The notes under the pieces: generated by a model
Database searches by the model: none
The model's input: only the letters and a program-made list of their open reading frames with translations
Told to the model about the DNA's origin: nothing
Made by a program: the position numbers and the translations under genes
In this document: positions 1-13,645 of the stretch, piece after piece
How the letters are laid out: each line of letters begins with the position of its first letter
How positions within the stretch are numbered: position 1 is the stretch's first letter
NCBI GenBank assembly: GCA_016699795.1
Contig: CP065011.1
Location: 418,474 to 482,473, forward strand
DNA: 64,000 bases
DNA from: Candidatus Moraniibacteriota bacterium
GTDB lineage: Bacteria; Patescibacteriota; Minisyncoccia; Moranbacterales; GCA-2747515
Direction: 5' to 3'

Positions 1-240
1 AGAATAAATAAAAGCTACAAGGTTATTATCTTTCATATTTCAATATTAACACACTATTTAATTATAATTTTGAGTGGATAGGGAGAATTTATCGCATCAC
101 TCGTTCGCCGTCATTCATTTACTCCTTACTCGCGGCAACGCCAAATGTTCATCCGCATTTATTGGCATTTGCTGTAAAAAATCTCTACTGAGCTTTTTCT
201 AGCTCACTGCCACCGAGTTCAATTCTCCCTACCACAAAAC

Positions 241-273
241 AAAAAACTCCCCTAATGAATGGGGAGCTTTTTG
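241..273. terminator. Bidirectional rho-independent terminator-like hairpin (ctcccc..ggggag) flanked by A-run and T-run
   Basis: Stem ctcccc 247-252 pairs with ggggag 261-266, followed by ttttt. A poly-A run precedes it, so it can act on either strand. It lies just downstream of the minus-strand HEPN-like gene. Confidence 0.55.
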
Positions 274-343
274 AAATTTTGAGCTGGCTTGTCCATGCGG
301 TTAGGACCGAATTCATGGAAGGAGTCTCCTGTAAATCCCCTGT

Positions 344-748
344 TTAGACCATTAGTTTGAGGATGATGTTGAGACATGGAGTACAGATGCTATTGAAAAT
401 TGCCTCGGCAGTCTCTTCGTCGTTAACCGGATACAACAAGCCATCTATTTCGAACTGGTTCTCGTGGAAATTTGAATGCATATACATGTTTCGATACTCT
501 CGAACCCTATGCAATGTTTCCGCTTCACTCTCAGCAATCAAACTGTCCTTTTTGGCCTTATTGATTATAACATTCAAGGTGTCTTCGTCTTTTGAATCTG
601 TAGCCCACCGCAAAACTTGTTCCAGAAGCATAAATAACGAAGCAATTGCCGGATACCATTTTTCTTCTTTGGCACAGCAATACATCTGAGAGACAATCCA
701 GCCTATGGCGCGATCTTTATTTGCTATATTGTTGATGATGTCATTCAT
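344..748 (-). CDS. Small hypothetical protein, candidate HEPN-domain RNase (R-N-x3-H motif)
   Basis: 134-aa ORF, predicted alpha-helical. 'RNMYMH' matches the HEPN R-[NHQ]-x3-H / Rx4-6H signature. It is the last gene of the co-directional island. Confidence 0.45.
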   Translation of the reverse strand: MNDIINNIANKDRAIGWIVSQMYCCAKEEKWYPAIASLFMLLEQVLRWATDSKDEDTLNVIINKAKKDSLIAESEAETLHRVREYRNMYMHSNFHENQFEIDGLLYPVNDEETAEAIFNSICTPCLNIILKLMV

Positions 749-769
749 TTTAGAAAAGATGCCGCCTTT

Positions 770-1744
770 TTAATTGGGCTTATAAATAAAATATTTCTCC
801 GCTATCTTGTTCCACTTTTTATCATTAAGGACATTCCTGTACGGGTTTTTGATGATTATCGGGTGGTAACCAGTCCGAGCCATTCCATTTCTGTCTACCA
901 AGTAGATAAAGTATTCTCCATTCTTCACTTTAGCAACATCAATTTCATTTCTTGTCCAAAAAAAAGTAGGTTCCCCTATATAGCTTTTAACTTCTATAAA
1001 TCTATCCGGAGTACTTGAAACTACCGATTCAAATGAAACTATGTCATATCCGGCAGAAACATCATAATCGGATATTTTTTCAATTTCTGGACTTTTCTGT
1101 TCGCCCAATCTCAACCTCTCGAACCCTAACACAAAATTTTCCGCCAACTCACCGTTAATCCTGTTTTCTTCAAGCTGTCGATATAAATCTTCTGCCGTCA
1201 ACTTTCTTCTTTTTAGGCTTGGTAGCACAGACGAATCGAAAATATCCCTATATTCACCATTAACAACCAACTTACTGGCATTGATGTCTAAACTAGGAAT
1301 CAAAAAATTGAAATCAATGAGCAATTGCTTGAATTTCGAATATTTCAAACGAAAGGCAGAATTCTTTATCTGTATATTTCTATGAACCACATCGTACGAA
1401 AAATTTTCAGGAATGAATATTTCTTTAAAAGCAGAGTCTTTTTCCAATTCGGAAAACGCTTTTTTCAATATTTTAATACGCAGATACTCTTCGCTTTTTA
1501 AATTTGCCAAAAAGGAATCGCCGATAATTATCGCCCCATTTTTTGCAATATTGATTATGTTGATTGCCTCAAGGAACGGGACACAACCGTCAAATACAGT
1601 CCGGCCATCAATCAGACGGTTACGTAAATATTCATCAATGCCAACAGTATTCCATCTTCCCTTGCGTGCATCAAATTGGTTGAATAATTCCCAAAATAAT
1701 TTCGGAGTACCGAGGTTTTCATATTTACTGAGTTCTTTTAGCAT
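770..1744 (-). CDS. DUF3883-like (restriction-endonuclease-fold, PD-(D/E)xK) domain protein
   Basis: The C-terminal 'DRFIEVKSY...FFWTRNEIDVAKVKNGEYFIYLVD' looks like DUF3883, a domain often fused C-terminally to SNF2 helicases. Its start overlaps the SNF2 gene by 20 nt. Confidence 0.55.
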   Translation of the reverse strand: MLKELSKYENLGTPKLFWELFNQFDARKGRWNTVGIDEYLRNRLIDGRTVFDGCVPFLEAINIINIAKNGAIIIGDSFLANLKSEEYLRIKILKKAFSELEKDSAFKEIFIPENFSYDVVHRNIQIKNSAFRLKYSKFKQLLIDFNFLIPSLDINASKLVVNGEYRDIFDSSVLPSLKRRKLTAEDLYRQLEENRINGELAENFVLGFERLRLGEQKSPEIEKISDYDVSAGYDIVSFESVVSSTPDRFIEVKSYIGEPTFFWTRNEIDVAKVKNGEYFIYLVDRNGMARTGYHPIIIKNPYRNVLNDKKWNKIAEKYFIYKPN

Positions 1745-3698
1745 AATTATCCAATAAAGCTTTGATTAAGTCCGTTTCATCCGAATCATCAATTCTGGAA
1801 AACAGAGGGATATCCTCGTCTATTATTTTTTCCATCCGTTCAACCTTAATGTGGAGTTGCCGATCAATAACCTCGTCAATCGAATCCTCGGATAATATGT
1901 AATAATAATTGGTTTCCTGGTCAGCAGGCAAGCCGACCCGATGTATCCTATCTTTGGACTGTAAGAAATTAGAGCAATTATAATCCCTTTCCATGTATAC
2001 GGCGTTATGACATCCTTTATGCAAAGAGATGGATTCAGCGACGGCGAAAGGATTGGCGATAACTACCCGAAACTCAGTATTGAGTGGGTCATTAAATTTT
2101 TTGATGATATTCTCACGCTCCACCTGCCCCGTCTCCCCGATAAGAAGCTCGGAATTTATTCCTTGTTTAGATAATAAATCCTTAAATTGCTTCGCGTTTT
2201 GCACAAATATGGTCCAAACCAAAATTTTCTCGTTTTGTTTAATCTTTTCCTTCAACAAATCCAATATGCTGGAAAATTTACTCGGTGTCTCCGATTTCAT
2301 ATACAGACTTATTTTTGATAGTATTTCAGAATCATCCTGAAACTCATCCGGCATTTTATTTCCAGAAAAAGTCCTACCGTCAAAATCATCGCTTTCCAGG
2401 GTTTCCTTAATTGGCTTCATGAGTAAAGAGGGGTTGGTCGAGGCTTGCCGCAACCTTATCAATTTAGCCTTATTCAAGATGTCCTTTATGGTTGCCGAGT
2501 TACTTTTTTGGAATGATTTGATGTACTTCGTTTCAATGAAATCATAAATTTTCCTTTGTTCTTTTCCCATTTCTACATGGATAATCGTTTCTTTTACCGG
2601 GGGGAGTTTCAGGTCAGACTTTTTTATTCTAATGAAGTATGGCGATATGTTAGCAGTGAATTTTTTTACTCGCTCGCTGTCAGGCTCGCTATTTTTAGTC
2701 ATATCAACCAGATTGCCATAATGAAATTTTAATATATCTTTGAACTTAAAGGGATATATAAACTGATACAAATTATACAGGTCTTCATATCCGTTTGGAA
2801 CGGGAGTACCCGTTAAAACTACCTTCGACTTTGCTTCTTTCGCGATGTTGATGACGCTCTTGCCCCACACGCCTTCAGGATTTTTTATCCTATGCGCTTC
2901 ATCTACGACCAACATAGTCTTGTGCTTCTTTAAGAAATCGACAATTTCATGCTGTAGGCCGTCAACGCCGCCATGAAATATAAGGGTTATTTCACAGGGA
3001 TTGCCCGAATACAGATGCTGCTCCTTATGGCTTCTTGATATACTGCTATCCCCAGAAAGTCTTTGCACTTGGGCTTTTTTGCCAAAACACTCTTCGTACT
3101 CATTTTCCCAAGGCGCAAAAGCAGACAGGGGGCTGATTACCATAAGCTTATCTACATGCTTAGGATCTTCTTTTGGTAAGTTTTTTAAATATGCGTAGGC
3201 TCCATATACAATTGAGGTTTTGCCGGCACCGGGAACTGCAAAGTTACAAGCATTTTGTGCAAAAGCCATGTGGTACGCCGATAACAATTGCAAGGGGTAT
3301 AGCTTTCTAGTTAATTCCCTTTTAACAACCGACTGAAAGTGATCAAAATCAGAAACAAGTTCCGGATTGTCTTTGAATTCATTGTTCCTTATCTTCCTAG
3401 CTTTTTGTGAAAATACATCGAAGTTCTTCTGCTCACGATGATAACTGTCTACTGATTTTTGAGTCTCATCGGACATGCTCTCCTTTATGCCGAATTTTTC
3501 AAAAAGTTCGTTTATTTCCCCCAACACATCTATTTTTCTCCCATCTTCAAAAGGTACGGACAACAAGTCTTCCTTCAATGCATAGTGCAGTCGCCTAAAA
3601 GAAAACAGAAGCCTCCTGTTGGTCAAGATGCTACTTATGTCACCGCTTATCACATACCTCAAATTTTCCTCATCCAAATGGATTTCGATATTACCCAT
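1725..3698 (-). CDS. SNF2-family (SWI2/SNF2) helicase/ATPase
   Basis: Walker A 'VPGAGKTS', 'VVDEAHRIKN' (DEAH box), 'VLTGTPVPNG' (motif III), C-terminal 'QSKDRIHRVG' (motif VI). The N-terminal ~130 aa have no recognised domain. Confidence 0.85.
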   Translation of the reverse strand: MGNIEIHLDEENLRYVISGDISSILTNRRLLFSFRRLHYALKEDLLSVPFEDGRKIDVLGEINELFEKFGIKESMSDETQKSVDSYHREQKNFDVFSQKARKIRNNEFKDNPELVSDFDHFQSVVKRELTRKLYPLQLLSAYHMAFAQNACNFAVPGAGKTSIVYGAYAYLKNLPKEDPKHVDKLMVISPLSAFAPWENEYEECFGKKAQVQRLSGDSSISRSHKEQHLYSGNPCEITLIFHGGVDGLQHEIVDFLKKHKTMLVVDEAHRIKNPEGVWGKSVINIAKEAKSKVVLTGTPVPNGYEDLYNLYQFIYPFKFKDILKFHYGNLVDMTKNSEPDSERVKKFTANISPYFIRIKKSDLKLPPVKETIIHVEMGKEQRKIYDFIETKYIKSFQKSNSATIKDILNKAKLIRLRQASTNPSLLMKPIKETLESDDFDGRTFSGNKMPDEFQDDSEILSKISLYMKSETPSKFSSILDLLKEKIKQNEKILVWTIFVQNAKQFKDLLSKQGINSELLIGETGQVERENIIKKFNDPLNTEFRVVIANPFAVAESISLHKGCHNAVYMERDYNCSNFLQSKDRIHRVGLPADQETNYYYILSEDSIDEVIDRQLHIKVERMEKIIDEDIPLFSRIDDSDETDLIKALLDNYAKRTQ

Positions 3699-3703
3699 AA
3701 ATA

Positions 3704-5080
3704 TTATCCGCCAAGTTCCTTCTTCATATCAAAAGTAGTTTTGTTTATAAGGGTTACCTTGTCGAGGAGCGATTTCTCCGGTTGCTTTCCCTTTTTATTT
3801 AAGTTTACTTTTGCAAGCAAATAAATGATGTGATCAAGCAAACTTTCAGGAGATGTCTTAATCAACATATCCGTCGTCATTTTGTTCAATTCCAGAACCT
3901 CATTCATGACTTCTGGTTCAGCAAAAGCTTTGTGTTTTTGGTCGATGGACTCAATCGCTCTCTTTGCGGAATTAATGAGCTTGGCCGGCTCATCGGCTGC
4001 TTGGCGATTACGGAGCCATTGGTAATGCGTATCTATGTTTTCATTAAGAAATTTGGCTGATTCTTTGGTAAACTTATCATCCCTTGCATCCAAATGTGCC
4101 TCAAGGTTTTCCGAATCATAATCAATTTTTTCTTCTTCGTCACTTATTGGATCCACATGTTCGAAATGGAAATCCCTGAAATCTTTCCATATCTTTTCAT
4201 CACCGAAAAAGTGACTTTCTTTTCGCCCGTAAGCTATATTCCTAAATTTTTTGCCTTCGTACCTTGCACGGATGTAATCAAAAGAAATCATTTTCAGATC
4301 ATCGACGTCACTGGATTTGTATCCATCAAAAGCGTCCGCACTCCCTCTTGAGACGTTTTCGAATTTTTTTATCCATTTTGTAAGATTTATGAATTGATCC
4401 TCTCTTCCGTCCAATTGGGTATATATTCCATCATATTGCAAGTATTGCAGGTAGTCATCCATTATTTTCATCACCTCCAAATATTCCTTTACAGTAGTTT
4501 CGCTTTCACCCATCCAATTGGCTATTTTGTCCACACTAACCTTCCTTTGATGGAGTCCTTTGGCTTTTAGATATTTTTCAACAGGATTATAACCCAGCTT
4601 TTCATCTTCGCCCATCTGGTACAATGTTTCGAGTTTTTCGATTTCCAAGGGGTCTTCTTCCAATGTGACGGGCAAAACCACTGCCTTAAAATAATCTTTT
4701 TTCAGCTTGTTCAAGAGCATGACTCTTCTGTTCCCATCTATAACTATTCCATCCCGTGTGATGATTCCAACTTTTTCTTGACCATATTTCTCTATACTTT
4801 CTTCAGTTTTCTTATTCCGGTCAGGCTTTGACTCCCAAAGTAATTTTTCGATACGGCGTCTGCCGTCTTCGCTTTCCACATCAATCTCATGCTTCTGGCT
4901 TTCAAGAGATTTTGTTCTGCTCAATATTCGCCCGTTATATTTATTGTAAACCAGGTATGCCAAGGGGATTTTAAACACTGGCATCAATTCCAGTTTCTCC
5001 TTCCAAGGGATTTCCTGCTTACTGAACGGTTCCAGTTTTGATACTTCACCTATCTTTTTAATGCGGTTTTCTTTTTCCAT
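3704..5080 (-). CDS. ParB/sulfiredoxin-like N-terminal domain protein (DGNRR motif) with probable HTH
   Basis: 'GIITRDGIVIDGNRRVMLL' resembles the ParB 'GERRxRA', DndB 'DGQHR' and DUF262 'DGQQR' nucleotide-binding motifs. The downstream 'VSVDKIANWMGESETTVKEYLEV' is HTH-like. The 250-aa C-terminus is unassigned. Confidence 0.55.
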   Translation of the reverse strand: MEKENRIKKIGEVSKLEPFSKQEIPWKEKLELMPVFKIPLAYLVYNKYNGRILSRTKSLESQKHEIDVESEDGRRRIEKLLWESKPDRNKKTEESIEKYGQEKVGIITRDGIVIDGNRRVMLLNKLKKDYFKAVVLPVTLEEDPLEIEKLETLYQMGEDEKLGYNPVEKYLKAKGLHQRKVSVDKIANWMGESETTVKEYLEVMKIMDDYLQYLQYDGIYTQLDGREDQFINLTKWIKKFENVSRGSADAFDGYKSSDVDDLKMISFDYIRARYEGKKFRNIAYGRKESHFFGDEKIWKDFRDFHFEHVDPISDEEEKIDYDSENLEAHLDARDDKFTKESAKFLNENIDTHYQWLRNRQAADEPAKLINSAKRAIESIDQKHKAFAEPEVMNEVLELNKMTTDMLIKTSPESLLDHIIYLLAKVNLNKKGKQPEKSLLDKVTLINKTTFDMKKELGG

Positions 5081-5090
5081 ATGCTTAATA

Positions 5091-6791
5091 TTAATAAACC
5101 AATTTTAATAAACCATACATAGCCATGATTTGGGCGAGAGGAACGGTTTCTTTTGGAAAAAAACCGTTGGTCTCAATGTACTTGAAATAGTTATCATATA
5201 AATTGATTGAGTCTGCCATCCCCTTGACTATCAATACTGGATTATTCTTATTGCTGAGGAATAAGTCATCCTCGTATGCCTTTTGCAAATCCTTTTTTGT
5301 GGCGATGTTTTTTATAGATTTTTTGTACTCATTGGAACAAGACAGATTTTCGTCAAGAATTTTTTCTATAATTGGCAAGCTCTTTTCATCCAATATCTTT
5401 ACCTTATGGTCATCTCCTGTACCGAAAAATACGCCCACATGCCACGATTTGGCGATGCTTTCATCTTTTCTGTCAGGATGATAGTTCATAAGATCAACTG
5501 TCATGTTTCCTAACTTCAATGGATGTCTACGGAAAAGAGCGTTTTTATTTCTTTTGCGCGGATTGTCAAACTTGTTTTCTGTAAATGTATTCAGATTGTT
5601 CACCTTCTTGTAATTTTCAGAAAGTTCCGAAAAATCGATTTTATCGTGACTGATCTCTCCCAATCCCATTTTTTTCCTGATAGTTTTGGCTAATGAATTC
5701 CCCATATGGGGGCAAACGGCGTTTCCTACTTGTTTCCACTTGATACCCTCGGAACCTACAAATTGGTACACATAAGGAAATCCCATAAGACAAGCGATTT
5801 CCCTTATAGTAGGCGCCCTGTATTCCCCGTCGCCCTTCCTGTTGTATTCCGACTTATAAATTAGAGCTTCCCGTGAACTTGCAGACTTTGTAGCTAGTAT
5901 GGTCCTGCTAGGCCTGTCTTCGTTCTCAGGGAATGACATCTTTCCCATAAAAGGATGATTCGTCTTTAAATATTCAGCTTTTTCCCATTCAAGTTTGTAA
6001 ATGCCAGAATCATAAAAGTGATCGGATATCTTTTCTGCCTCCAAAGTTATGCTAGGATAATTAGGATCCGTCCATTTGTTTTTTTTGTTTTTATCATTAG
6101 GCTTTGGTATGTTTTTCTTTATTTCTTGTAATTTGATATTGATCTTTTTCGCGCTTTCAGGTCTTAAGAATTCGTTTGTCTTAACCCATTCGCCTGCCAC
6201 AAACCTTTCCCTGCCTTGCGGAGCGCCAAAGTCCTTTGAGTTGAAAAATCCCCCATTCGTAGTCACCGCTATATCATCAGGTTTTTTACCGATTGTCAAC
6301 GACCATTTACCAAGGTTCAGATCTTTGAAACTGTATTTGATTTTCACGTGTGTTCGAGATTGTGGAACATTTTCCATATACCACGCCTTTAGCGTAGAGT
6401 CAGCCTCGTGTTTTTTCACGGCCACAACCCTCAAATATGCTTCAATCAACCTTATACCATGGGTTTTGTCAGCCTTGCCGGCCTTATTCGACATAGAAAA
6501 CGAAACACAGGACGGACTGCCAATCAATACTTCTGCCGGAGGCAACTTGTTGATTTCAGAAACATCCCCGGAAGATTTACCCCAAAAATCCAGGACGTTT
6601 TTTGTGGTATCTTTTAGGCCGTGATTTAGGTTATGCGTATCGATAGCAGGCTGCCAATTATCAACTCCCATTATCACATCAAATCCTTGCTGTCTGAATC
6701 CTTCGGAGAATCCGCCAGCACCGCAAAAGAAATCAATTACTCTAATCTTTTTGTTTTTCATAATGCAAGATGTATGATTAAATTTATCCAA
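5091..6791 (-). CDS. DNA (cytosine-5)-methyltransferase with ~190-aa C-terminal extension
   Basis: Motif I 'DFFCGAGGFSEGF', motif IV 'GSPSCVSFS' (catalytic Cys), motif VI 'YMENVPQ', motif X-like 'GNAVCPHMGNSLA'. The C-terminal ~190 aa are unassigned. The true start may be the internal Met of 'MKNKKIRVIDFF'. Confidence 0.85.
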   Translation of the reverse strand: MDKFNHTSCIMKNKKIRVIDFFCGAGGFSEGFRQQGFDVIMGVDNWQPAIDTHNLNHGLKDTTKNVLDFWGKSSGDVSEINKLPPAEVLIGSPSCVSFSMSNKAGKADKTHGIRLIEAYLRVVAVKKHEADSTLKAWYMENVPQSRTHVKIKYSFKDLNLGKWSLTIGKKPDDIAVTTNGGFFNSKDFGAPQGRERFVAGEWVKTNEFLRPESAKKINIKLQEIKKNIPKPNDKNKKNKWTDPNYPSITLEAEKISDHFYDSGIYKLEWEKAEYLKTNHPFMGKMSFPENEDRPSRTILATKSASSREALIYKSEYNRKGDGEYRAPTIREIACLMGFPYVYQFVGSEGIKWKQVGNAVCPHMGNSLAKTIRKKMGLGEISHDKIDFSELSENYKKVNNLNTFTENKFDNPRKRNKNALFRRHPLKLGNMTVDLMNYHPDRKDESIAKSWHVGVFFGTGDDHKVKILDEKSLPIIEKILDENLSCSNEYKKSIKNIATKKDLQKAYEDDLFLSNKNNPVLIVKGMADSINLYDNYFKYIETNGFFPKETVPLAQIMAMYGLLKLVY

Positions 6792-7305
6792 AATTAACTG
6801 CGACCTATTCCAATACCAGTCTAACAGTTATTTCATTTTGGATCAACTTTTAAACAACAGCATCGTTTTTTGTCTTTATTTCTTCCTTCATTCTATCGGC
6901 AAAGGACCATAAAGTAAAGGAAAACTGATGTTATAGGGGTCTTTTTGCTTAATAAACCCAACCCATCACAGAAATTGATTAAAAATCAAATAAATCAAAG
7001 TAGAACGAGTTCACAGGATTGGTTAAAAACCAAAAAAACCTTTGAGCAGGTAGCATTTTTTGCTTTACTTAAAACCTTCTTTGAACGGCAAGGTGCCGTA
7101 GAAGTGGTCGTTTAATCAATATTTATCAAATAACTCATACCAGAGATCTGAAAATGCCCTCTTTTCTGAGTTCATTGCTCATCCCTCGGACCCCGATTTC
7201 ATCCTGAGAGCATACTTTGTCATATCAGCCATATGCTTTTATGGCTTTTGCTTTTCCGTGCGACTCTGGATGTCTGGTGATTCGAGAAGCAAAAAACTGC
7301 ATAAT

Positions 7306-7716
7306 TTATCCGATGACGAATGGGCTTAGGATTTTTATGTGCTCCGATTGCAGATATCGGTAACTGTATCCGTTTTTCATTTTCCAAGATTTGCTATTTT
7401 TTATTGACCTGATAAATTTTTTCAGAATTTTGTCATGGTTGTATAGATACCACCCATCGTTCTTCTTGTCGTGAAAACAAATGAATATCTTTTTTCCCAG
7501 GTATTTCTTTTCAAAAGTTAGCCGTCCCTTAAGCTGAACCTTGAGATATTTTTCCCCGTCAAAGCTAATAGCAATAAAATCTGCACCCATCCAGTCGTCA
7601 GAAAGTTTAACGGTCGTATATCCATATTCGGCGAAGATGGCCGAGGCTTTTTGAAAGTTATATATTTCTTTCTGCCTAGCATTGAGATCGCTATATTTTA
7701 TTTTTTCCTTCAACAT
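7306..7716 (-). CDS. Hypothetical protein (possible nuclease-like fold, unassigned)
   Basis: 136-aa ORF. 'DFIAISFDGEKYLKVQLKGR' is weakly PD-(D/E)xK-like. No firm assignment. Confidence 0.35.
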   Translation of the reverse strand: MLKEKIKYSDLNARQKEIYNFQKASAIFAEYGYTTVKLSDDWMGADFIAISFDGEKYLKVQLKGRLTFEKKYLGKKIFICFHDKKNDGWYLYNHDKILKKFIRSIKNSKSWKMKNGYSYRYLQSEHIKILSPFVIG

Positions 7717-7963
7717 AAAAGCGACCTAAATCGATTAGATCGCCGAGAAGTTTCCGCTTGAGTGGACGACCCGGCGGAACTCACAGTCAAGAGAACACCA
7801 AGTGCCTCTATTGTGTGCACCGAATCGCCCGCTAAAAGGCGCAATAGAGACAAGCATGGCTTGTTTTCTTGATGTTTATTTGACTGTGAGTTCTATTATA
7901 AAATACACCCAAACAAAGCGTAATGCAACTTGCGAATTGTCCTGTTTATGAGAGAATGGGTGC

Positions 7964-8938
7964 ATGGAAAATCAATCGGTAAAAATCGTATTCAATGAAT
8001 TTCAAACTGATCTGCTGATAGGTTTTTTTAGCGACCTTGAAAAACTCAGATTTAAGAATCAGAACAATAGAACGGTTAGCATAAACCCAAATAAACACGA
8101 CGGCAGCTGGGTTTTTGACATGGATCCTTACGTACCCGCCATCAATGAGGCTTTCTCTCAAAATTTAGGAAAAATAAAGTATTTTGACCGACTAATTGAA
8201 GGGTTCAGCTCTTCCAATCTTTATCCGATTGTTAAAAGCAAAGACTCAATAACCGATTGCATAGAAAAACTTTCCCAAAAATACGGGCTGACAAAAATAC
8301 CCCTAATCTACACCACCGTTTTATTTCCATCCAAAGACAACCTTCCCGCCTTGGTCTGGGCTGAATTGTCTAGCATTGGATGTTTTGAAGAAAAATATTT
8401 TGGACATATCGATTTTATAAACGCCGTCTTGGAATTAAAAAAAGAAAAAAATATTGAAATAAAAGGTTTTGAAATAATGAATTTAGACGGGGCGGGTTTC
8501 ACATTTAAAATTATCTTGGCGCTAAAAAAAGAATTGGGAACCCACTCAGAAAATAAATTGTCTGACGCATATGAAATTTCGATCAAAGACAGGGAGATTT
8601 GGATTAATAACACATACCTTATCGGCAAACCTCACGGAGCTGGCAGCAACATGGAATTTTTCAGTTTTTTATTTGAACACCCAAATAAGTTTTTTAGAAA
8701 AAGTGAACTACCAGATGGAATTAAAAATGAAATAAAATCAAAAAAATTCTCAAAAATATTAAACAGTTTGGGTTTTAAAGGTGAAATATTAAAGGCATTC
8801 TTTCCGAAGAGAAGCACTAAGACGGGGTTATTGTTCAATAAAGTAATTTCCGATAAGGATATTGAAGAAAGAGGCATTAAAAAAGAAATATTTTTGAGGG
8901 AATTGGAGTTAGCTAACATAAGGAATAATCCAAAATAG
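7964..8938 (+). CDS. Hypothetical protein
   Basis: 324-aa ORF preceded by a structured intergenic region. No recognisable motifs. Confidence 0.5.
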   Translation: MENQSVKIVFNEFQTDLLIGFFSDLEKLRFKNQNNRTVSINPNKHDGSWVFDMDPYVPAINEAFSQNLGKIKYFDRLIEGFSSSNLYPIVKSKDSITDCIEKLSQKYGLTKIPLIYTTVLFPSKDNLPALVWAELSSIGCFEEKYFGHIDFINAVLELKKEKNIEIKGFEIMNLDGAGFTFKIILALKKELGTHSENKLSDAYEISIKDREIWINNTYLIGKPHGAGSNMEFFSFLFEHPNKFFRKSELPDGIKNEIKSKKFSKILNSLGFKGEILKAFFPKRSTKTGLLFNKVISDKDIEERGIKKEIFLRELELANIRNNPK

Positions 8939-8992
8939 TTCCATTTAGTTCCATATTCCATAAAAATTTTCGGAAAGAGTCATACTGCAAGT

Positions 8993-9565
8993 ATGATTTT
9001 TTTATTTTCAAAAAAATATTCCGACCAAGAACTTCTTGAAATTTTCCCTGAAGCCAAAACGATAATACCCGAAAAGATTTCAGAATGGCAGGAGGAGTAT
9101 GACAAATTGGCAAATGAGATTAAGGGATTTTTGACCGCCGTCTATGAGCGTTGCCCCGAAAAGGATGTGTGGTTCTGGGAAATAGTCGCGGAAAAACTGA
9201 TGATTCCCGACCTGCTGAAAATAGAGAATCACATCTTACGCCTAAAAAGGCAACAGATAATTGCAAAGGGCAAAAGCAACAGACGCCAAGAAAATTACGA
9301 AAAGTTCCAAGAGAAAATTATACTTGCTCGATCCTATCCAATCTACGAACTGGCGCGTGACAAACTCGATCTCAAACCGTCTGGGAAAAACTTTGTGGCG
9401 TTGTGTCCCTTCCACAATGAAAAAACTCCCAGCTGCTATTTCTACACAGAGACCAATACCTTTGTATGTTTCGGATGCGGAGAAAAGAGCGACATTATAA
9501 AATTTACAATGCATTTTTACGGAGTCGGATTCCGAGACGCCGTAGAGATGCTTCAAGCAAGATGA
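8993..9565 (+). CDS. CHC2 zinc-finger (DnaG-type primase Zn-binding domain) protein
   Basis: 'CPFHNEKTPSCYFYTETNTFVCFGCGEKSDIIKF' matches the C-x-H...C-x2-C primase zinc finger. Its stop TGA overlaps the next ATG (ATGA). Confidence 0.6.
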   Translation: MIFLFSKKYSDQELLEIFPEAKTIIPEKISEWQEEYDKLANEIKGFLTAVYERCPEKDVWFWEIVAEKLMIPDLLKIENHILRLKRQQIIAKGKSNRRQENYEKFQEKIILARSYPIYELARDKLDLKPSGKNFVALCPFHNEKTPSCYFYTETNTFVCFGCGEKSDIIKFTMHFYGVGFRDAVEMLQAR

Positions 9566-10917
9566 GTGGTAAAGCAAATAACAAATTAAACGAGATAAAA
9601 AACAATATGGAGAAAGAAAAAAATGTGTCGCACGACGCCAAGAAACAACAGTCTAGGGAGAATGAACGATTCGCAAAATTGATCCCAGAGGTACCGACTG
9701 ACATAGCACTCTGGCGAGAAGTTATCACGGAAAATTTTCCCGAATTGATACTTCCGGCCGAAGTAGGCTTAAGCATAATCGCCCAACTGCTGATAGGCGA
9801 TATCAAAAATCCGTTTGCCCTCGTCTATGTGGATGTTCCATCTTCTGGAAAAACCGTCGTTTTGAATTTCTTTTCCACCGCCAAAGAACTGGCATTTACG
9901 ACTGACAATTTCACCCCGGCGTCGTTTGTATCTCAAGCCGCAAAAAAGAAAAAGGAGGAACTGGCCGAAATCGACATGTTGCCACAGATCAGGTACAAGA
10001 CATTGATTATCCGGGATCTTGCCCCCGTATTTAGCAAGAAAGACGAAAATGTCCAAGAAATGCTCGGGATATTAATCAGAGTTCTGGACGGAGAAGGTCT
10101 GGAAACAAGCGGTGGCATACACGGCAAGCGCGGATATACCGGAGACTACCTGTTTATGTTGCTTTCTGCCTCTACCCCAATCCGCCCTAGGATATGGAAA
10201 GCTATGGGGAACCTGGGGTCGCGTTTGTTTTTCGTCAATATCGGAGGCGCCGAGAAAAGCGAAACCGCCCTAGCAAACCAGTTAAAGAAGCCTTGCCGGG
10301 AAAAAGAAATTTTATGCCGGGAAGTTACTGAAAACTTTGCAAAAACTTTGTGGAGCAAATATCCCGACGGAGTCCTTTGGGATATGGAAAAAGACGAGCA
10401 GAGCTTGTTGGAAATCATTGCTCGTCTTGCCAAAATACTGGCACGCCTCAGAAGTTCTATCAATGTTTGGAAAGACAGCAACGAATCCAAAAAGTATGAC
10501 CACACTCAACCGATTACAGAAATGCCAGACAGGCTGAATCAGCTCCTTTACAATTTGGCTAGAGGTCATGCCATTGTTTGTGGCCGAGAAAATATCACCA
10601 AGGAAGATCTTAGCATCGTAATGCGAGTTGCGCTTGATTCTGCTCCACCCAACCGAGCAAGAGTGTTTAAGAATCTCATAAAATCATCGGGTGTGCTTGC
10701 AACAAACCAAGTCATGGATATTCTCAAATGTTCCCGTCCAACAGCGCTGAAAGAAATGGAGCAACTTGTTATCCTGGGAATTGTCGAACCGTCTGAAGAT
10801 TTGGCTGAAGCAAGCAGTTTGCATTTCACAGGCAGACCGGAAAGCGAGATCGCGCTCAAAGAAGAATTCAAATGGTTTCTGACCAATGAATGCCATTTAT
10901 TGATACATAGGAGCTAA
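9562..10917 (+). CDS. P-loop NTPase, primase-associated/replicative helicase-like protein of a mobile element
   Basis: Walker A 'DVPSSGKTVV', Walker B-like 'LIIRDLAP', C-terminal winged-helix-like segment. Start moved to the ATG at 9562, which overlaps the upstream stop (translational coupling). The longer ORF from 9466 overlaps the previous gene. Confidence 0.5.
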   Translation: MSGKANNKLNEIKNNMEKEKNVSHDAKKQQSRENERFAKLIPEVPTDIALWREVITENFPELILPAEVGLSIIAQLLIGDIKNPFALVYVDVPSSGKTVVLNFFSTAKELAFTTDNFTPASFVSQAAKKKKEELAEIDMLPQIRYKTLIIRDLAPVFSKKDENVQEMLGILIRVLDGEGLETSGGIHGKRGYTGDYLFMLLSASTPIRPRIWKAMGNLGSRLFFVNIGGAEKSETALANQLKKPCREKEILCREVTENFAKTLWSKYPDGVLWDMEKDEQSLLEIIARLAKILARLRSSINVWKDSNESKKYDHTQPITEMPDRLNQLLYNLARGHAIVCGRENITKEDLSIVMRVALDSAPPNRARVFKNLIKSSGVLATNQVMDILKCSRPTALKEMEQLVILGIVEPSEDLAEASSLHFTGRPESEIALKEEFKWFLTNECHLLIHRS

Positions 10918-10966
10918 AAGGGTTTATAAACCAAATTTACCCCTATGTTATAAACCGATAATTACT

Positions 10967-11128
10967 ATGATTACCGAATCAGACGCTAAAAAATTTCAGG
11001 AACTATACGAAAAAGAAACCGGAAAGAAAATCTCTCTCAAGGAGGCTTTTGAACTGGCAGAAAATTTGGTGGACATGGTTCGGCTTATCTACAAGCCCAT
11101 TAAAAAGAAGGACCGCAAAGATTGTTAG
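10967..11128 (+). CDS. Small ORF (53 aa), hypothetical
   Basis: Read manually; 'MITESDAKKFQELYEKETGKKISLKEAFELAENLVDMVRLIYKPIKKKDRKDC'. It sits between the helicase-like gene and the recombinase. Below the 60-aa cut-off of the ORF track. Confidence 0.25.
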   Translation: MITESDAKKFQELYEKETGKKISLKEAFELAENLVDMVRLIYKPIKKKDRKDC

Positions 11129-11187
11129 AATTTTCAATGTCGCTATACAATCTGCATAGACAGTAACGTGCACAAATTGAAACCATT

Positions 11188-12795
11188 ATGGAGGCCAAAA
11201 TAAAGTATCTAATGTATCTTCGCAAAAGCACCGATAGCGAAGATCGCCAGATACAATCAATCGAAGATCAACGCAAGGAACTGGAACGCATCGCCAGACA
11301 TCTTAAACTTGAAATTAAGGGAGTTTACCATGAAAACAAATCCGCCAAGAAGCCTGGGCGGGAGGAATTTAACAAGATGCTTAAAGAGATAAGACGAGGC
11401 AAGGCCGGCGGAATTCTTTGTTGGAAAATTAACCGCCTAACCAGAAATCCGATAGACAGCGGCGAAATCCAATACATGCTGCAGCTTGGACTGATACAGT
11501 CGATCCAAACGCCGGGCAGAGAATACAAAACGACTGACAATGTATTGATGATGTCGGTCGAGACGGGAATGGCCAACCAGTACATCATTGACCTGGGCAG
11601 GGATGTTAAGCGCGGCATGGCTTCCAAAGCCGAGAAAGGTTGGCGGCCAGGACTCGTGCCGATTGGATACAAGAACGACAAGGCGGGAGAACAAGGAAGC
11701 AAAGTCATCCACGTCGATGAAGAACGCTTCCCGATTGTCCGCCAGATGTGGGATCTTATGTTGACTGGCGATTATTCGGTTTCCAAGATTGTTGACATTG
11801 CCAACAACGAGTGGGGTTTGAGAAAACCCACGCGCAATATAGACATGAAGCTCCACGAAAGCCACGGGTACAAAATTTTCACGAACCATTTTTATTACGG
11901 GGAATATGAGTGGGTCGGCAAGACATATCAAGGCAAGCACACGCCAATGATAACGCGAGCTGAATTTGATTATGTCCAGAAGCTCCTGGGGATCAAATGC
12001 AAATCACAGACACGCCACAAAAACCTTCCTTACCGTGGCACAATCCGCTGTGGCGAGTGCGGATGCTCTATCACGACCGAGCAGAAAATAAAAAGAATCA
12101 AATCCAAGAATATCATCAAGACTTTTGTTTACCACCACTGCACCAAAAAGAAATTGGACACCGATTGCCGACAGAAACCCGTATCTTTCGAAGAAATCAA
12201 CAGACAAGTCATGGAAGAGCTGGACAAAATAACCTTGCCCGAGAGTTTTCTGGCTTTTGCTTTGAAGATTTTGAACCGGGACAATGAACTTGAGGTCGAC
12301 AATCGCAACATCATGGTTAAAAACCAGCAGAAAGCCCTGAAAGACTGCCAGAACAAGATTGATAACCTGCTGAAAATCTATATTTCACTCAACAACTCCG
12401 ACAAGGATCTGATAAGCGACGAGGAATTCAAGGGCCAGAAGTCGTCCTTGCTTAAAGAGAAGGCCGGGATCGAACAGAATTTGAACAATCTACGCCAACG
12501 AGCAGACGAATGGTTAGAACTGACCGAAAAAACTTTCACATTCGCTGTCTACGCAAAACATAATTTCGCTGAGGGAGATTACGAAACCAAGACCAGGATA
12601 TTGCGTGCCTTAGGTTCGGACTGCGTCTTGAAAGACAGAAAGGTCCATATTACCTTGCGCAAACAATATCAGATCATCAAAGAAGGCACGGAAATGATAA
12701 AGGCTCAAAACCCAGGGTTAGAACTGAATGATTTTGCTTTATCTGAAACAAAAACAGCCCAATATGGGGCCGTTTCTGATGTCTTGAGCGGGTGA
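11188..12795 (+). CDS. Large serine recombinase (resolvase/invertase-type N-terminal catalytic domain, recombinase domain, zinc ribbon)
   Basis: 'YLRKSTDSEDRQ' is the Y-x-R-x-S-T...Q catalytic serine motif. 'CGECGCSIT' is a zinc ribbon. 535 aa. Its last 9 nt overlap the 3' end of tRNA-Gly. Confidence 0.85.
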   Translation: MEAKIKYLMYLRKSTDSEDRQIQSIEDQRKELERIARHLKLEIKGVYHENKSAKKPGREEFNKMLKEIRRGKAGGILCWKINRLTRNPIDSGEIQYMLQLGLIQSIQTPGREYKTTDNVLMMSVETGMANQYIIDLGRDVKRGMASKAEKGWRPGLVPIGYKNDKAGEQGSKVIHVDEERFPIVRQMWDLMLTGDYSVSKIVDIANNEWGLRKPTRNIDMKLHESHGYKIFTNHFYYGEYEWVGKTYQGKHTPMITRAEFDYVQKLLGIKCKSQTRHKNLPYRGTIRCGECGCSITTEQKIKRIKSKNIIKTFVYHHCTKKKLDTDCRQKPVSFEEINRQVMEELDKITLPESFLAFALKILNRDNELEVDNRNIMVKNQQKALKDCQNKIDNLLKIYISLNNSDKDLISDEEFKGQKSSLLKEKAGIEQNLNNLRQRADEWLELTEKTFTFAVYAKHNFAEGDYETKTRILRALGSDCVLKDRKVHITLRKQYQIIKEGTEMIKAQNPGLELNDFALSETKTAQYGAVSDVLSG

Positions 12796-12859
12796 GCGGA
12801 ATCGAACCGCCGTCCTTAGCTTGGAAGGCTAATATAATAAACCATTATACGACACCCGC
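12787..12859 (-). tRNA. tRNA-Gly (anticodon UCC), no encoded CCA
   Basis: Manual fold: acceptor GCGGGTG/CACCCGC, anticodon stem TTAGC/GCTAA with loop CTTCCAA, T-arm GGCGG-TTCGATT-CCGCT. The weak D-stem is AT-rich. Confidence 0.75.
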
Positions 12860-12910
12860 GGAGGTACTTTTTAAGGAAACATCTCCAGTGTATCAAATCG
12901 ACAAAAAAAA

Positions 12911-13645
12911 TCAACTCCGTGCTGATCCAAAATTATCAAAAAACATACGGTCCTTAGAAATTCCCATGTTTTCAAGATTATTTTTCATAACTTGTATAAA
13001 ATTTGCACCCGCAGCAATGAAGTATTGTGTTTCTGGTGTATCTTCTATAAATCCCCTAAGAAAATTTTCATCAATATATTCTCTTCTTCCATTCCAAAGA
13101 GAAGTCGAGTGCTCCATGTCTGTCATAGTATTGATTACTTTAATATGAGAATACTGTTGAGAGAGTGATTCTATCCATTGAAATTCAGGAGTTGCTTCAG
13201 GTGTGCGATTGGAATTTATAAGTAAGCAAGGAATAATTTCTTCTTTCTTGATAATATGTCGGAGTATACTTCTCATTGGAGAATATCCCACACCAGCACA
13301 AATAAAAACAAGATTTTGTACATTTTCCCCCATATTTGAAAGGGAACAATTTCCCATAGGATCAGAAATTTCCAAAGAATCCCCCAGGGACATTTTGTGA
13401 ATATTCTTTTTGAAACCACTTTCACTTTGGCGCATCAAAAAACTTAATTCCTCTTCATAAGGCGCACTCGCAAAAGAAAAAGTTCTTACATTTCCTCGTG
13501 CGTCTGGATATATATCCAATTCTTTGTTAAAACGCAAAACCGCATATTGTCCAGCCTCAAATGAATATTTCTCAGGTCGAGAAAAAGTGTAAATAAAAGT
13601 GTTTTCAGCAATTTCTTCTTTTTTTTGAAAATTAATACTTTGCAT
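12911..13645 (-). CDS. Ferredoxin-NADP reductase-like FAD/NAD(P)-binding oxidoreductase
   Basis: 'RTFSFAS' (RxYS FAD-binding) and 'VFICAGVGYSPMRS' (GxGxxP NAD-binding). 244 aa. Confidence 0.65.
   Translation of the reverse strand: MQSINFQKKEEIAENTFIYTFSRPEKYSFEAGQYAVLRFNKELDIYPDARGNVRTFSFASAPYEEELSFLMRQSESGFKKNIHKMSLGDSLEISDPMGNCSLSNMGENVQNLVFICAGVGYSPMRSILRHIIKKEEIIPCLLINSNRTPEATPEFQWIESLSQQYSHIKVINTMTDMEHSTSLWNGRREYIDENFLRGFIEDTPETQYFIAAGANFIQVMKNNLENMGISKDRMFFDNFGSARS

Follow-up and report, generated by a model that had tools for sequence, protein, structure and literature searches.

We analyzed a locus near the start of a 64,000-nucleotide stretch of the genome of a Candidatus Moraniibacteriota bacterium (assembly GCA_016699795.1, contig CP065011.1, positions 418,474 to 482,473 of the forward strand). 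This whole stretch is referred to as the window, and positions are counted from its first letter. The locus is a string of genes that encodes a predicted cytosine-C5 DNA methyltransferase (C5-MTase), a ParB-like protein, an SNF2-family motor, and a nuclease, followed by a small HEPN-like protein. An earlier reading of this DNA (the original prediction) had described the five genes as a single defense island. The five co-directional open reading frames (ORFs) on the minus strand lie exactly at the coordinates claimed, and their tight packing was confirmed: genes 1 and 2, 2 and 3, and 4 and 5 are separated by 10, 5, and 21 nt, respectively, and a 20-nt stretch is shared by genes 3 and 4. The bidirectional terminator that had been placed near 241–273 was found at 240–273. 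The features of the locus are as follows.

5091–6791, minus strand: gene 1, C5-MTase with a C-terminal extension (566 amino acids, aa)
Residues ~14–375 of gene 1, minus strand: MTase catalytic core
5094–5666, minus strand: family-specific C-terminal extension of the MTase, ~190 aa (residues ~376–566)
3704–5080, minus strand: gene 2, ParB-like protein (458 aa)
1725–3698, minus strand: gene 3, SNF2-family ATPase/translocase (657 aa)
770–1744, minus strand: gene 4, effector subunit with winged-helix and NOV_C/DUF3883 PD-(D/E)xK domains (324 aa)
Residues 1–~185 of gene 4, minus strand: tandem winged-helix domain, from the AlphaFold2 (AF2) model
344–748, minus strand: gene 5, small DUF4145/HEPN-like protein (134 aa)
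240–273, both strands: bidirectional intrinsic terminator that closes the minus-strand gene string (13-bp stem with six GC pairs and T runs on each strand)

The region of about 500 bp upstream of gene 1, which had been called AT-rich, is so only marginally, with a GC content of 0.34–0.37 compared with 0.37–0.43 in the operon. All five domain assignments held, by profile searches for four proteins (borderline for gene 5) and by structure alone for gene 2, and the motifs claimed can be read directly in the translations of all five genes.

Gene order was counted by tblastn of the five window proteins against 80 loci from a scan of one genome per species (loci and related contigs carry the prefix L). 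The full order of genes 1-2-3-4 was present in 57 of the 79 loci counted, or 58 of 80 when a Hellea locus (L041) is included. Genes 2 and 3 were adjacent in every locus uncut by a contig end (79/80), and gene 3 homologues with 42–80% identity occurred in 79 of the 80 loci. The host taxa span more than 10 phyla. Among bacteria they include Patescibacteria, the candidate phyla radiation (CPR), together with Bacteroidota, Alpha-, Beta-, and Gammaproteobacteria, Campylobacterota, Firmicutes, Acidobacteriota, Verrucomicrobiota, Spirochaetota, Melainabacteria, Chloroflexota, and Caldisericota; the archaeal host is Methanolobus. Chitinophagales and Hellea genomes that were looked up independently contained the same four genes amid unrelated housekeeping genes. 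The operon was also located at the ends of prophage contigs, and about 20 prophage contigs and the Streptococcus phage Javan191 carry genes 2-3-4 with a convergent C5-MTase. Because the identical order recurs across dozens of unrelated genomes, the arrangement is far beyond chance.

Gene 5 behaved differently from this set: it followed the operon in only one of the other loci (L015, 26% identity) and was absent in 79 of the 80. The proposal of a five-gene island therefore stands for genes 1–4, which recur in the same order across many phyla, and not for gene 5. The conserved unit is a widely transferred set of four genes. In two loci (L059 and L082) the SNF2 gene is in fragments, and these are probably decaying copies of the system.

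Gene 1 matched Pfam DNA_methylase (PF00145, E = 1e-32) and the PADLOC model MTase_II (E = 6e-41). Its translation reads FFCGAGGF, GSPSC, ENV, QGRER, TIRE, and GNAV and thus contains the C5-MTase motifs I (FxGxG), IV (PC), VI (ENV), VIII (QxRxR), IX (RE), and X (GNAV). These catalytic motifs were invariant or nearly so in the 15 homologues compared; motif IV is P-S-C in the window enzyme and P-P-C in most homologues. Because homologues begin at the MKNK encoded from the ATG at 6761, translation probably starts there and not at the TTG at 6791. A profile search of the Protein Data Bank (PDB) matched M.HaeIII, DNMT1, and M.HhaI over the catalytic core only, and for the C-terminal extension both this search and a Pfam scan of 18 family members returned just noise. 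The extension carries the conserved motifs FRRHPxKxGNxTVxLxNY, W, LQxxYE, and QLxAxYA and is kept across phyla, yet it evolves quickly (mean identity 0.32 versus 0.55 for the MTase core). The region resembling a target recognition domain (TRD) is nearly as conserved as the core (0.48 versus 0.55). In 66 of the 79 tallied loci, to which L041 adds one, an MTase of the gene 1 type precedes gene 2 by 10–30 nt. The extension of these enzymes occurs only in this operon context, and one database ORF (P0175) fuses the C-terminal part of the MTase, the extension, and gene 2 in a single frame.

The gene 2 product gave nothing above threshold in Pfam, NCBIfam, or PADLOC v2 (the latter taken to E ≤ 0.1), its weak matches being to Pfam ddrB-ParB (E = 0.098) and to ParB-like entries of PHROG. 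Its AF2 model has a mean predicted local distance difference test (pLDDT) score of 87.9. A Foldseek search aligned ~220 columns of this model to Noc, CDP-bound ParB, and KorB (E from 7e-5 to 1e-3), and the best structural matches were ParB, Noc, KorB, and PadC, not SspE or GmrSD. On the strength of these alignments, residues 1 to ~215 of the model adopt a ParB-CTPase fold followed by a helix-turn-helix (HTH), as in the DNA clamps ParB, Noc, and KorB, which are gated by CTP. Two motifs, YNKYNGRILS (box I-like) and IDGNRR (box II-like), are invariant in 23 homologues. Beyond residue ~215 the protein is helical, with an invariant DVDDL...YIR...EGK...H.FG region and then a variable C terminus that is among the fastest-evolving parts of the system (mean identity 0.40).

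The original prediction had likened this protein to DndB and DpdB. Its ParB-like nature was borne out by structure; the likeness to DndB and DpdB was not, as those proteins are of the DUF262 type. None of the 23 gene 2 family members had a Pfam match to DUF262, and neither gene 2 nor three distant relatives matched NsnA, DndB, DpdB, SspE, or GmrSD in PADLOC. We also considered whether gene 2 could be a plasmid-partition ParB and found no parA beside it, either in the window or in the four-gene loci. Compared with the ParB of ParABS systems, gene 2 shares the CTPase fold and the HTH, and its box II reads GNRR instead of GERR; the resemblance is mechanistic and does not amount to membership. The family is large: it has more than 1200 word-indexed homologues, every one named "hypothetical", and among 1.84 billion representatives we counted 205, 878, and 1557 clusters at 50% identity for E ≤ 1e-30, 1e-10, and 1e-3, respectively. 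Distant homologues (31% identity over residues 1–214) sit on Firmicutes plasmids.

Gene 3 matched Pfam SNF2-rel_dom (4e-30) and Helicase_C (9e-11) and retains motifs I (PGAGKT), II (DEAH), III (TGTP), and VI (QSKDRIHRVGL), with a region of ~150 aa ahead of the motor. In PADLOC it was ZorD/DpdE/DrmD-like, far under the NCBIfam equivalog cut-offs, and its relatives in the PDB were CHD1L, SMARCA5, Chd1, a Sulfolobus Rad54-like protein, LSH, and DDM1. Gene 4 matched Pfam NOV_C/DUF3883 (E = 3e-12), with the PD-(D/E)xK residues D234, E251, and K253 (D234...E251-V-K253). Its AF2 model (pLDDT 85.7) has two parts, a tandem winged-helix N-terminal domain and a C-terminal nuclease, the former evolving quickly (mean identity 0.30). 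Family-wide, gene 4 begins ~13–20 nt ahead of the end of gene 3, and it is a separate gene that is translationally coupled to gene 3. The pairing of an SNF2 motor with a PD-(D/E)xK nuclease that had been proposed for this locus is therefore correct in both of its domains and is refined in that the nuclease is a coupled gene of its own with a winged-helix N terminus. Judged from their translations, the predicted MTase, SNF2 ATPase, and nuclease all have intact catalytic motifs.

Comparison of the loci revealed that the effector position is occupied by different proteins. In five loci (L062–L066), a protein with a C-terminal TIR domain (PF13676, E = 7e-16; PADLOC ThsB, 1e-45) stands in place of the NOV_C protein, and its N-terminal ~180 residues are homologous to the N-domain of gene 4 (hhalign probability 99%, E = 2e-18). 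These TIR variants were found through the loci; a word-indexed search that used the gene 4 N-domain as query missed them and returned only NOV_C orthologues. In L016 and L018, a restriction endonuclease (REase) similar to MutH and Sau3AI lies directly behind the SNF2 gene and is followed by an M.Sau3AI-like C5-MTase; in L008, an M.Sau3AI-like MTase follows SNF2 convergently. Related arrangements were present in L021, L038, L060, L086, L089, and one metagenomic contig. The ORFs downstream of gene 4 are highly varied (101 of 134 are singletons). Exchange of effectors is a hallmark of defense systems.

The linked MTase varies as well. Besides the gene 1 type we found M.Sau3AI-like enzymes, a convergent C5-MTase of 484 aa, and a divergent one of 422 aa that belongs to a more distant member of the system; one locus (L044) has no MTase nearby. 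A Vsr gene adjoins five of the 80 genome loci (a BLAST cluster with one member confirmed by Pfam) and a prophage locus, L093, whose order according to Pfam is Vsr, DpnII/BanI-like REase, gene 2, gene 3, gene 4, and a convergent C5-MTase. The linkage with Vsr argues that these MTases really produce 5-methylcytosine (5mC). Just upstream of the L093 cluster is a 1608-aa ORF with a MutS domain I (L093:1165–5991).

Two plasmids carry gene 2 relatives next to other motors. On the Enterococcus faecalis plasmid pUK045_1 (L084; NZ_CP091197.1, 55659–61780), a 423-aa gene 2-like ORF overlaps the end of a type III Res gene in the order Mod, Res, gene 2-like, suggesting that accessories of the ParB-like family recur alongside SF2 motor restriction enzymes and are not limited to SNF2. 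On an Exiguobacterium plasmid (L085; NZ_CP081879.1, 81222–84993), a gene 2-like protein overlaps an 857-aa fusion of a PLD nuclease and SNF2. Next come a 1120-aa Ig-domain protein and an HNH endonuclease, and no MTase is annotated nearby. Since its neighbors vary in this way (NOV_C, TIR, or REase; several MTase types; Mod-Res and PLD-SNF2), the invariant core is the ParB-like protein plus an SF2/SNF2 motor, joined nearly always by a C5-MTase and by an exchangeable effector.

An AspBHI-like, 5mC-dependent type IV enzyme (RE_AspBHI_N and Mrr_cat) is encoded directly downstream of the four-gene system in L075 (14678–15940), and an ORF of the same BLAST cluster is likewise downstream of the system in L081 (14157–15347). 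The type IV and MTase specificities must be compatible at these two loci because the adjacent system encodes a C5-MTase.

We then compared the operon with known systems. The original prediction had found no match to DISARM, BREX, Dnd/Ssp, Dpd, or type I/III restriction-modification (R-M) systems, and PADLOC and NCBIfam searches with the five genes agree. For DISARM, none of the genes matched DrmB or DrmC and DrmA was absent too, and the similarity of gene 3 to DrmD amounted to 54 bits in PADLOC and to 67 bits in NCBIfam, where the cut-off is 610. For BREX there was no match to PglZ or BrxC, the only similarity being a weak one to BrxHI/II in the helicase C-terminal domain (E = 1e-8). For types I and III, HsdS and a Res equivalog were both lacking; the MTase belongs to the C5 type, and the Pfam ResIII match reflects the generic SF2 core. 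ATP-dependent restriction by an SF2 motor coupled to an MTase would nevertheless be shared with type III, Type ISP, and class 1/2 DISARM systems, the last of which include an SNF2 protein (DrmD) and a C5-MTase (DrmMII). Unlike type III and Type ISP enzymes, the operon has no Res/Mod pair and no single-polypeptide ISP architecture. None of these three kinds of system has a ParB-like subunit, yet a distant gene 2 homologue follows Mod-Res on pUK045_1. An ancestry close to DNMT5 or DDM1 was rejected, since the MTase and the SNF2 protein show no closer relationship to these two than to the rest of their families.

In its parts list, the operon is most reminiscent of Hma and the type-1 BREX-related (BR) systems, which consist of an SNF2+NOV_C helicase-nuclease (HmaA), a DUF1156 MTase (HmaB), and a DUF499 ATPase (HmaC) (PMC11232893, PMC12839542). 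HmaA defends against T4, and its nuclease is required (PMC11232893). Both combine an SNF2 motor, a NOV_C/DUF3883 nuclease, a DNA MTase, and a further NTP-binding accessory, and both are mobile and patchily distributed. They differ in that HmaA is one polypeptide, whereas SNF2 and NOV_C are on separate overlapping ORFs here and the nuclease has a winged-helix adaptor; in that the MTase here is a C5 enzyme with a unique C-terminal extension, not a DUF1156 HmaB; and in that the accessory here has a ParB-CTPase fold rather than the AAA+ DUF499 fold of HmaC. Gene 2 had no Pfam match to DUF499 or AAA+ and no PADLOC match, all five PADLOC matches of gene 4 were to the PD-T4-1, PDC-S36, and TmtA models and none to HmaA, and no HmaB occurred among the 25 listed of the 46 PADLOC matches of gene 1.

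Similar logic is found in MANTIS (Gao_RL), which comprises the AAA+ ATPase MtsA, MtsB, the MTase MtsC, and the helicase-nuclease MtsD, and in which ATPases load the MTase and trigger the helicase-nuclease (10.64898/2026.09.23.753747). In both cases an NTPase accessory and an MTase would act on unmodified sites, after which a motor-nuclease is triggered. The protein families are different, those of MANTIS being an N6-adenine MTase, an ORC/Cdc6-type AAA+ protein, and a SauUSI-like dimeric helicase-nuclease, and we detected no homology of gene 2 to MANTIS proteins. Defense sensors of the ParB superfamily are known from Menshen (NsnA), GmrSD/BrxU, SspE, DndB, and DpdB (PMC12065111, PMC10853773). 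Like these, gene 2 combines an NTP-binding domain of ParB/Srx fold with a DNA-binding domain and is encoded beside an NTPase transducer and a polymorphic effector, which is the layout of Menshen. The known sensors are members of the DUF262 branch and are marked by QRxxxW, DGxQR, and FxxxN motifs together with a helical "ParBDB" domain; gene 2, in contrast, has DGNRR and a canonical ParB-type HTH, and its transducer is an SNF2 protein instead of the ABC ATPase of Menshen. A full-text literature search of limited coverage found no description of an operon of C5-MTase, ParB-like, SNF2, and NOV_C/TIR proteins. The operon thus appears to be undescribed and to be closest in logic to Hma/BR and MANTIS. 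Methylation-linked defense by a motor-nuclease is known as such; what is of a new type is the subunit with the ParB-CTPase fold.

Together, these data lead us to regard genes 1–4 as probably, though by no means certainly, a horizontally mobile, methylation-gated, NTP-dependent restriction system directed against phages or plasmids, a prediction made from sequence. In the mechanism we propose, the MTase would place 5mC on host DNA at a motif that the family probably shares, given a TRD-like region almost as conserved as the catalytic core. Through an NTP switch, the ParB-like protein would recognize unmarked DNA or close on it as a clamp, perhaps with help from the C-terminal extension of the MTase, and would then license the SNF2 motor, whose translocation would bring the attached effector into action. 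In the window this effector would cleave DNA; in the variants a TIR protein or a MutH/Sau3AI-like REase would act in its stead. The specific idea that a ParB/Noc/KorB-type clamp serves as the self/non-self scanner, loading or sliding on DNA that lacks its partner's 5mC and licensing SNF2 and a plug-in effector, is a tentative one. It is similarly doubtful, although conceivable, that such clamp-licensed restriction is a mode not described for any R-M or defense system.

Several observations weigh against this interpretation. The sensitivity of the ParB-SNF2-nuclease module to methylation is inferred only. A conserved TRD-like region is atypical, as R-M systems usually diversify their specificity. 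In box II of gene 2, an asparagine replaces the catalytic glutamate of ParB (GNRR versus GERR), which makes NTP hydrolysis uncertain. The TIR variants resemble ThsB, which in Thoeris is a signaler rather than a killer. Finally, L044 and the Exiguobacterium plasmid lack a linked MTase and other loci contain a complete type II pair, so the triad of genes 2–4 could act independently of methylation.

This last point is the essence of an alternative in which two independent neighbors have been brought together: an ordinary C5-MTase, either an orphan or of type II and accompanied or not by an REase and Vsr, and a methylation-independent ParB-SNF2-effector module that senses invaders directly, like Hna, ZorD, and Menshen, both being co-located as defense-island cargo. 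We consider this unlikely. In its favor, full type II pairs surround the triad in some loci, either as a MutH/Sau3AI-like REase with its MTase or as Vsr and a DpnII/BanI-like REase with a convergent MTase; the MTase type differs between subtypes; and L044 has no MTase, nor does the PLD-SNF2 locus of the Exiguobacterium plasmid have an annotated one. Set against this, some C5-MTase is linked in nearly all loci, with the gene 1 type close upstream in 66 of 79, and the C-terminal extension is confined to this context and even occurs in an ORF fused to gene 2. The REase of L016 and L018 occupies the effector slot right after SNF2, which suggests functional integration.

The remaining explanations place the module outside immunity. 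It might serve the mobile element that carries it, as an addiction or anti-restriction cassette whose MTase protects both element and host DNA or causes post-segregational killing and whose ParB-like and SNF2 proteins help to maintain the element or to compete against its rivals. Such a role would suit the occurrence of the operon on integrative elements, prophage ends, and plasmids, and the weak Pfam match of gene 2 to ddrB-ParB, a domain reportedly described from polyvalent proteins of phages and conjugative elements. We judge it improbable all the same, because the operon has no parA or partition context next to it in the window, many copies are embedded among ordinary housekeeping genes of the chromosome, and nuclease or TIR effectors with SNF2 motors are typical of defense, which such elements commonly carry anyway. 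Least probable of all, and in our estimate very improbable, is an epigenetic or repair machine in which SNF2 assists C5 methylation (as in Dnmt5 or DDM1/LSH), the ParB-like protein is a loader, and the nuclease and Vsr act in repair. Dnmt5 is said to couple an SNF2 ATPase to methylation, MANTIS has ATPase-dependent methylation, LSH and DDM1 are among the PDB relatives of gene 3, and Vsr is linked. However, gene 3 is at least as close to CHD or ISWI as to LSH or DDM1, and a patchy spread driven by horizontal gene transfer, sites on mobile elements, and swaps to TIR or REase effectors fit immunity.

If methylation-gated restriction is confirmed, the operon would be one more widespread methylation-linked defense system, ranging from CPR bacteria to Streptococcus prophages and an archaeon. 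If the ParB-like protein does act as proposed, the CTP/NTP-switch biology of ParB, Noc, and KorB would extend from chromosome segregation and transcription into immunity. The combination of a swappable effector slot with a conserved MTase TRD would make a tractable model for how a motor couples DNA sensing to different outputs, and the same model bears on how 5mC is read as "self".

Gene 5 contains the Rx4H motif RNMYMH, and its match to Pfam DUF4145 (PF13643) is borderline (E = 8e-5; 23.0 bits against a gathering cut-off of 23.1); a homologue with 62% identity (P0324) carries a precomputed PF13643 match. DUF4145 is a HEPN family often tied to R-M systems (PMC3710099). The original prediction had accordingly suggested that gene 5 provides the system with an RNase fail-safe. 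This proposal was not supported: gene 5 is near the operon in only the one other locus mentioned above, and its homologues sit in element backbones, so that it was rejected as a system component on both the co-occurrence counts and the comparison of backbones. Close homologues (53–75% identity) occur on contigs L114–L118 without genes 1–4. In L114 and L116, a homologue of the window's orf136 (66–75% identity) flanks different cargo, which lies between it and the gene 5 homologue, and L116 additionally has homologues of orf324 (58%) and of the CHC2 primase (46%) flanking this alternative cargo. Because L114–L118 share backbone genes around different cargo, gene 5 belongs to the backbone or the flank of an integrative element and is at most an independent accessory, and genes 1–4 are cargo in a hotspot between orf136 and gene 5 of an element of ~12.5 kb. 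The rest of the carrier backbone (7306–12859), defined by Pfam, a tRNA search, and comparison with L114 and L116, is composed of the following features.

7306–7716, minus strand: orf136, carrier element
7964–8938, plus strand: orf324, carrier element
8993–9565, plus strand: CHC2 zinc-finger primase fragment, 190 aa (Pfam)
9466–10917, plus strand: 483-aa HTH/AAA-lid protein, weak matches (Pfam)
11188–12795, plus strand: large serine recombinase (Pfam)
12786–12859, minus strand: tRNA-Gly (tRNA search)

These genes corroborate the location of the operon on an integrative element next to a serine integrase, as the recombinase abuts tRNA-Gly and a CHC2 primase is present. The recombinase, whose 3′ end overlaps the tRNA gene, is at the opposite end of the element from gene 5 in the window, whereas in L118 the gene 5 homologue is directly behind a serine recombinase; the two placements are therefore related by circular permutation of one element, as expected. 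The left end of the element is inferred solely from this permutation. No significant direct repeat that could represent att sites was found within positions 1–13000 of the window, which is unsurprising for a serine recombinase. The CHC2 primase-like ORF overlaps the 483-aa ORF by 100 nt, and the pair may represent one replication protein of the element that is frameshifted or made in two parts.

Small serine-recombinase elements of CPR bacteria, a group whose defense repertoire is poorly known, are thereby seen to have a cargo hotspot. The alternative cargo in this hotspot (L116:2571–7887, and also L114 and L115) consists of Vsr, a C5-MTase of 325–348 aa (325–331 aa in L114 and L116), and a four-gene operon almost devoid of Pfam and PADLOC matches. 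The operon encodes proteins of 80–114, 204, 694, and 296 aa, the last with a weak Sigma70_r4 match. We regard this cargo of L114–L116 as a candidate for another methylation-linked defense system.

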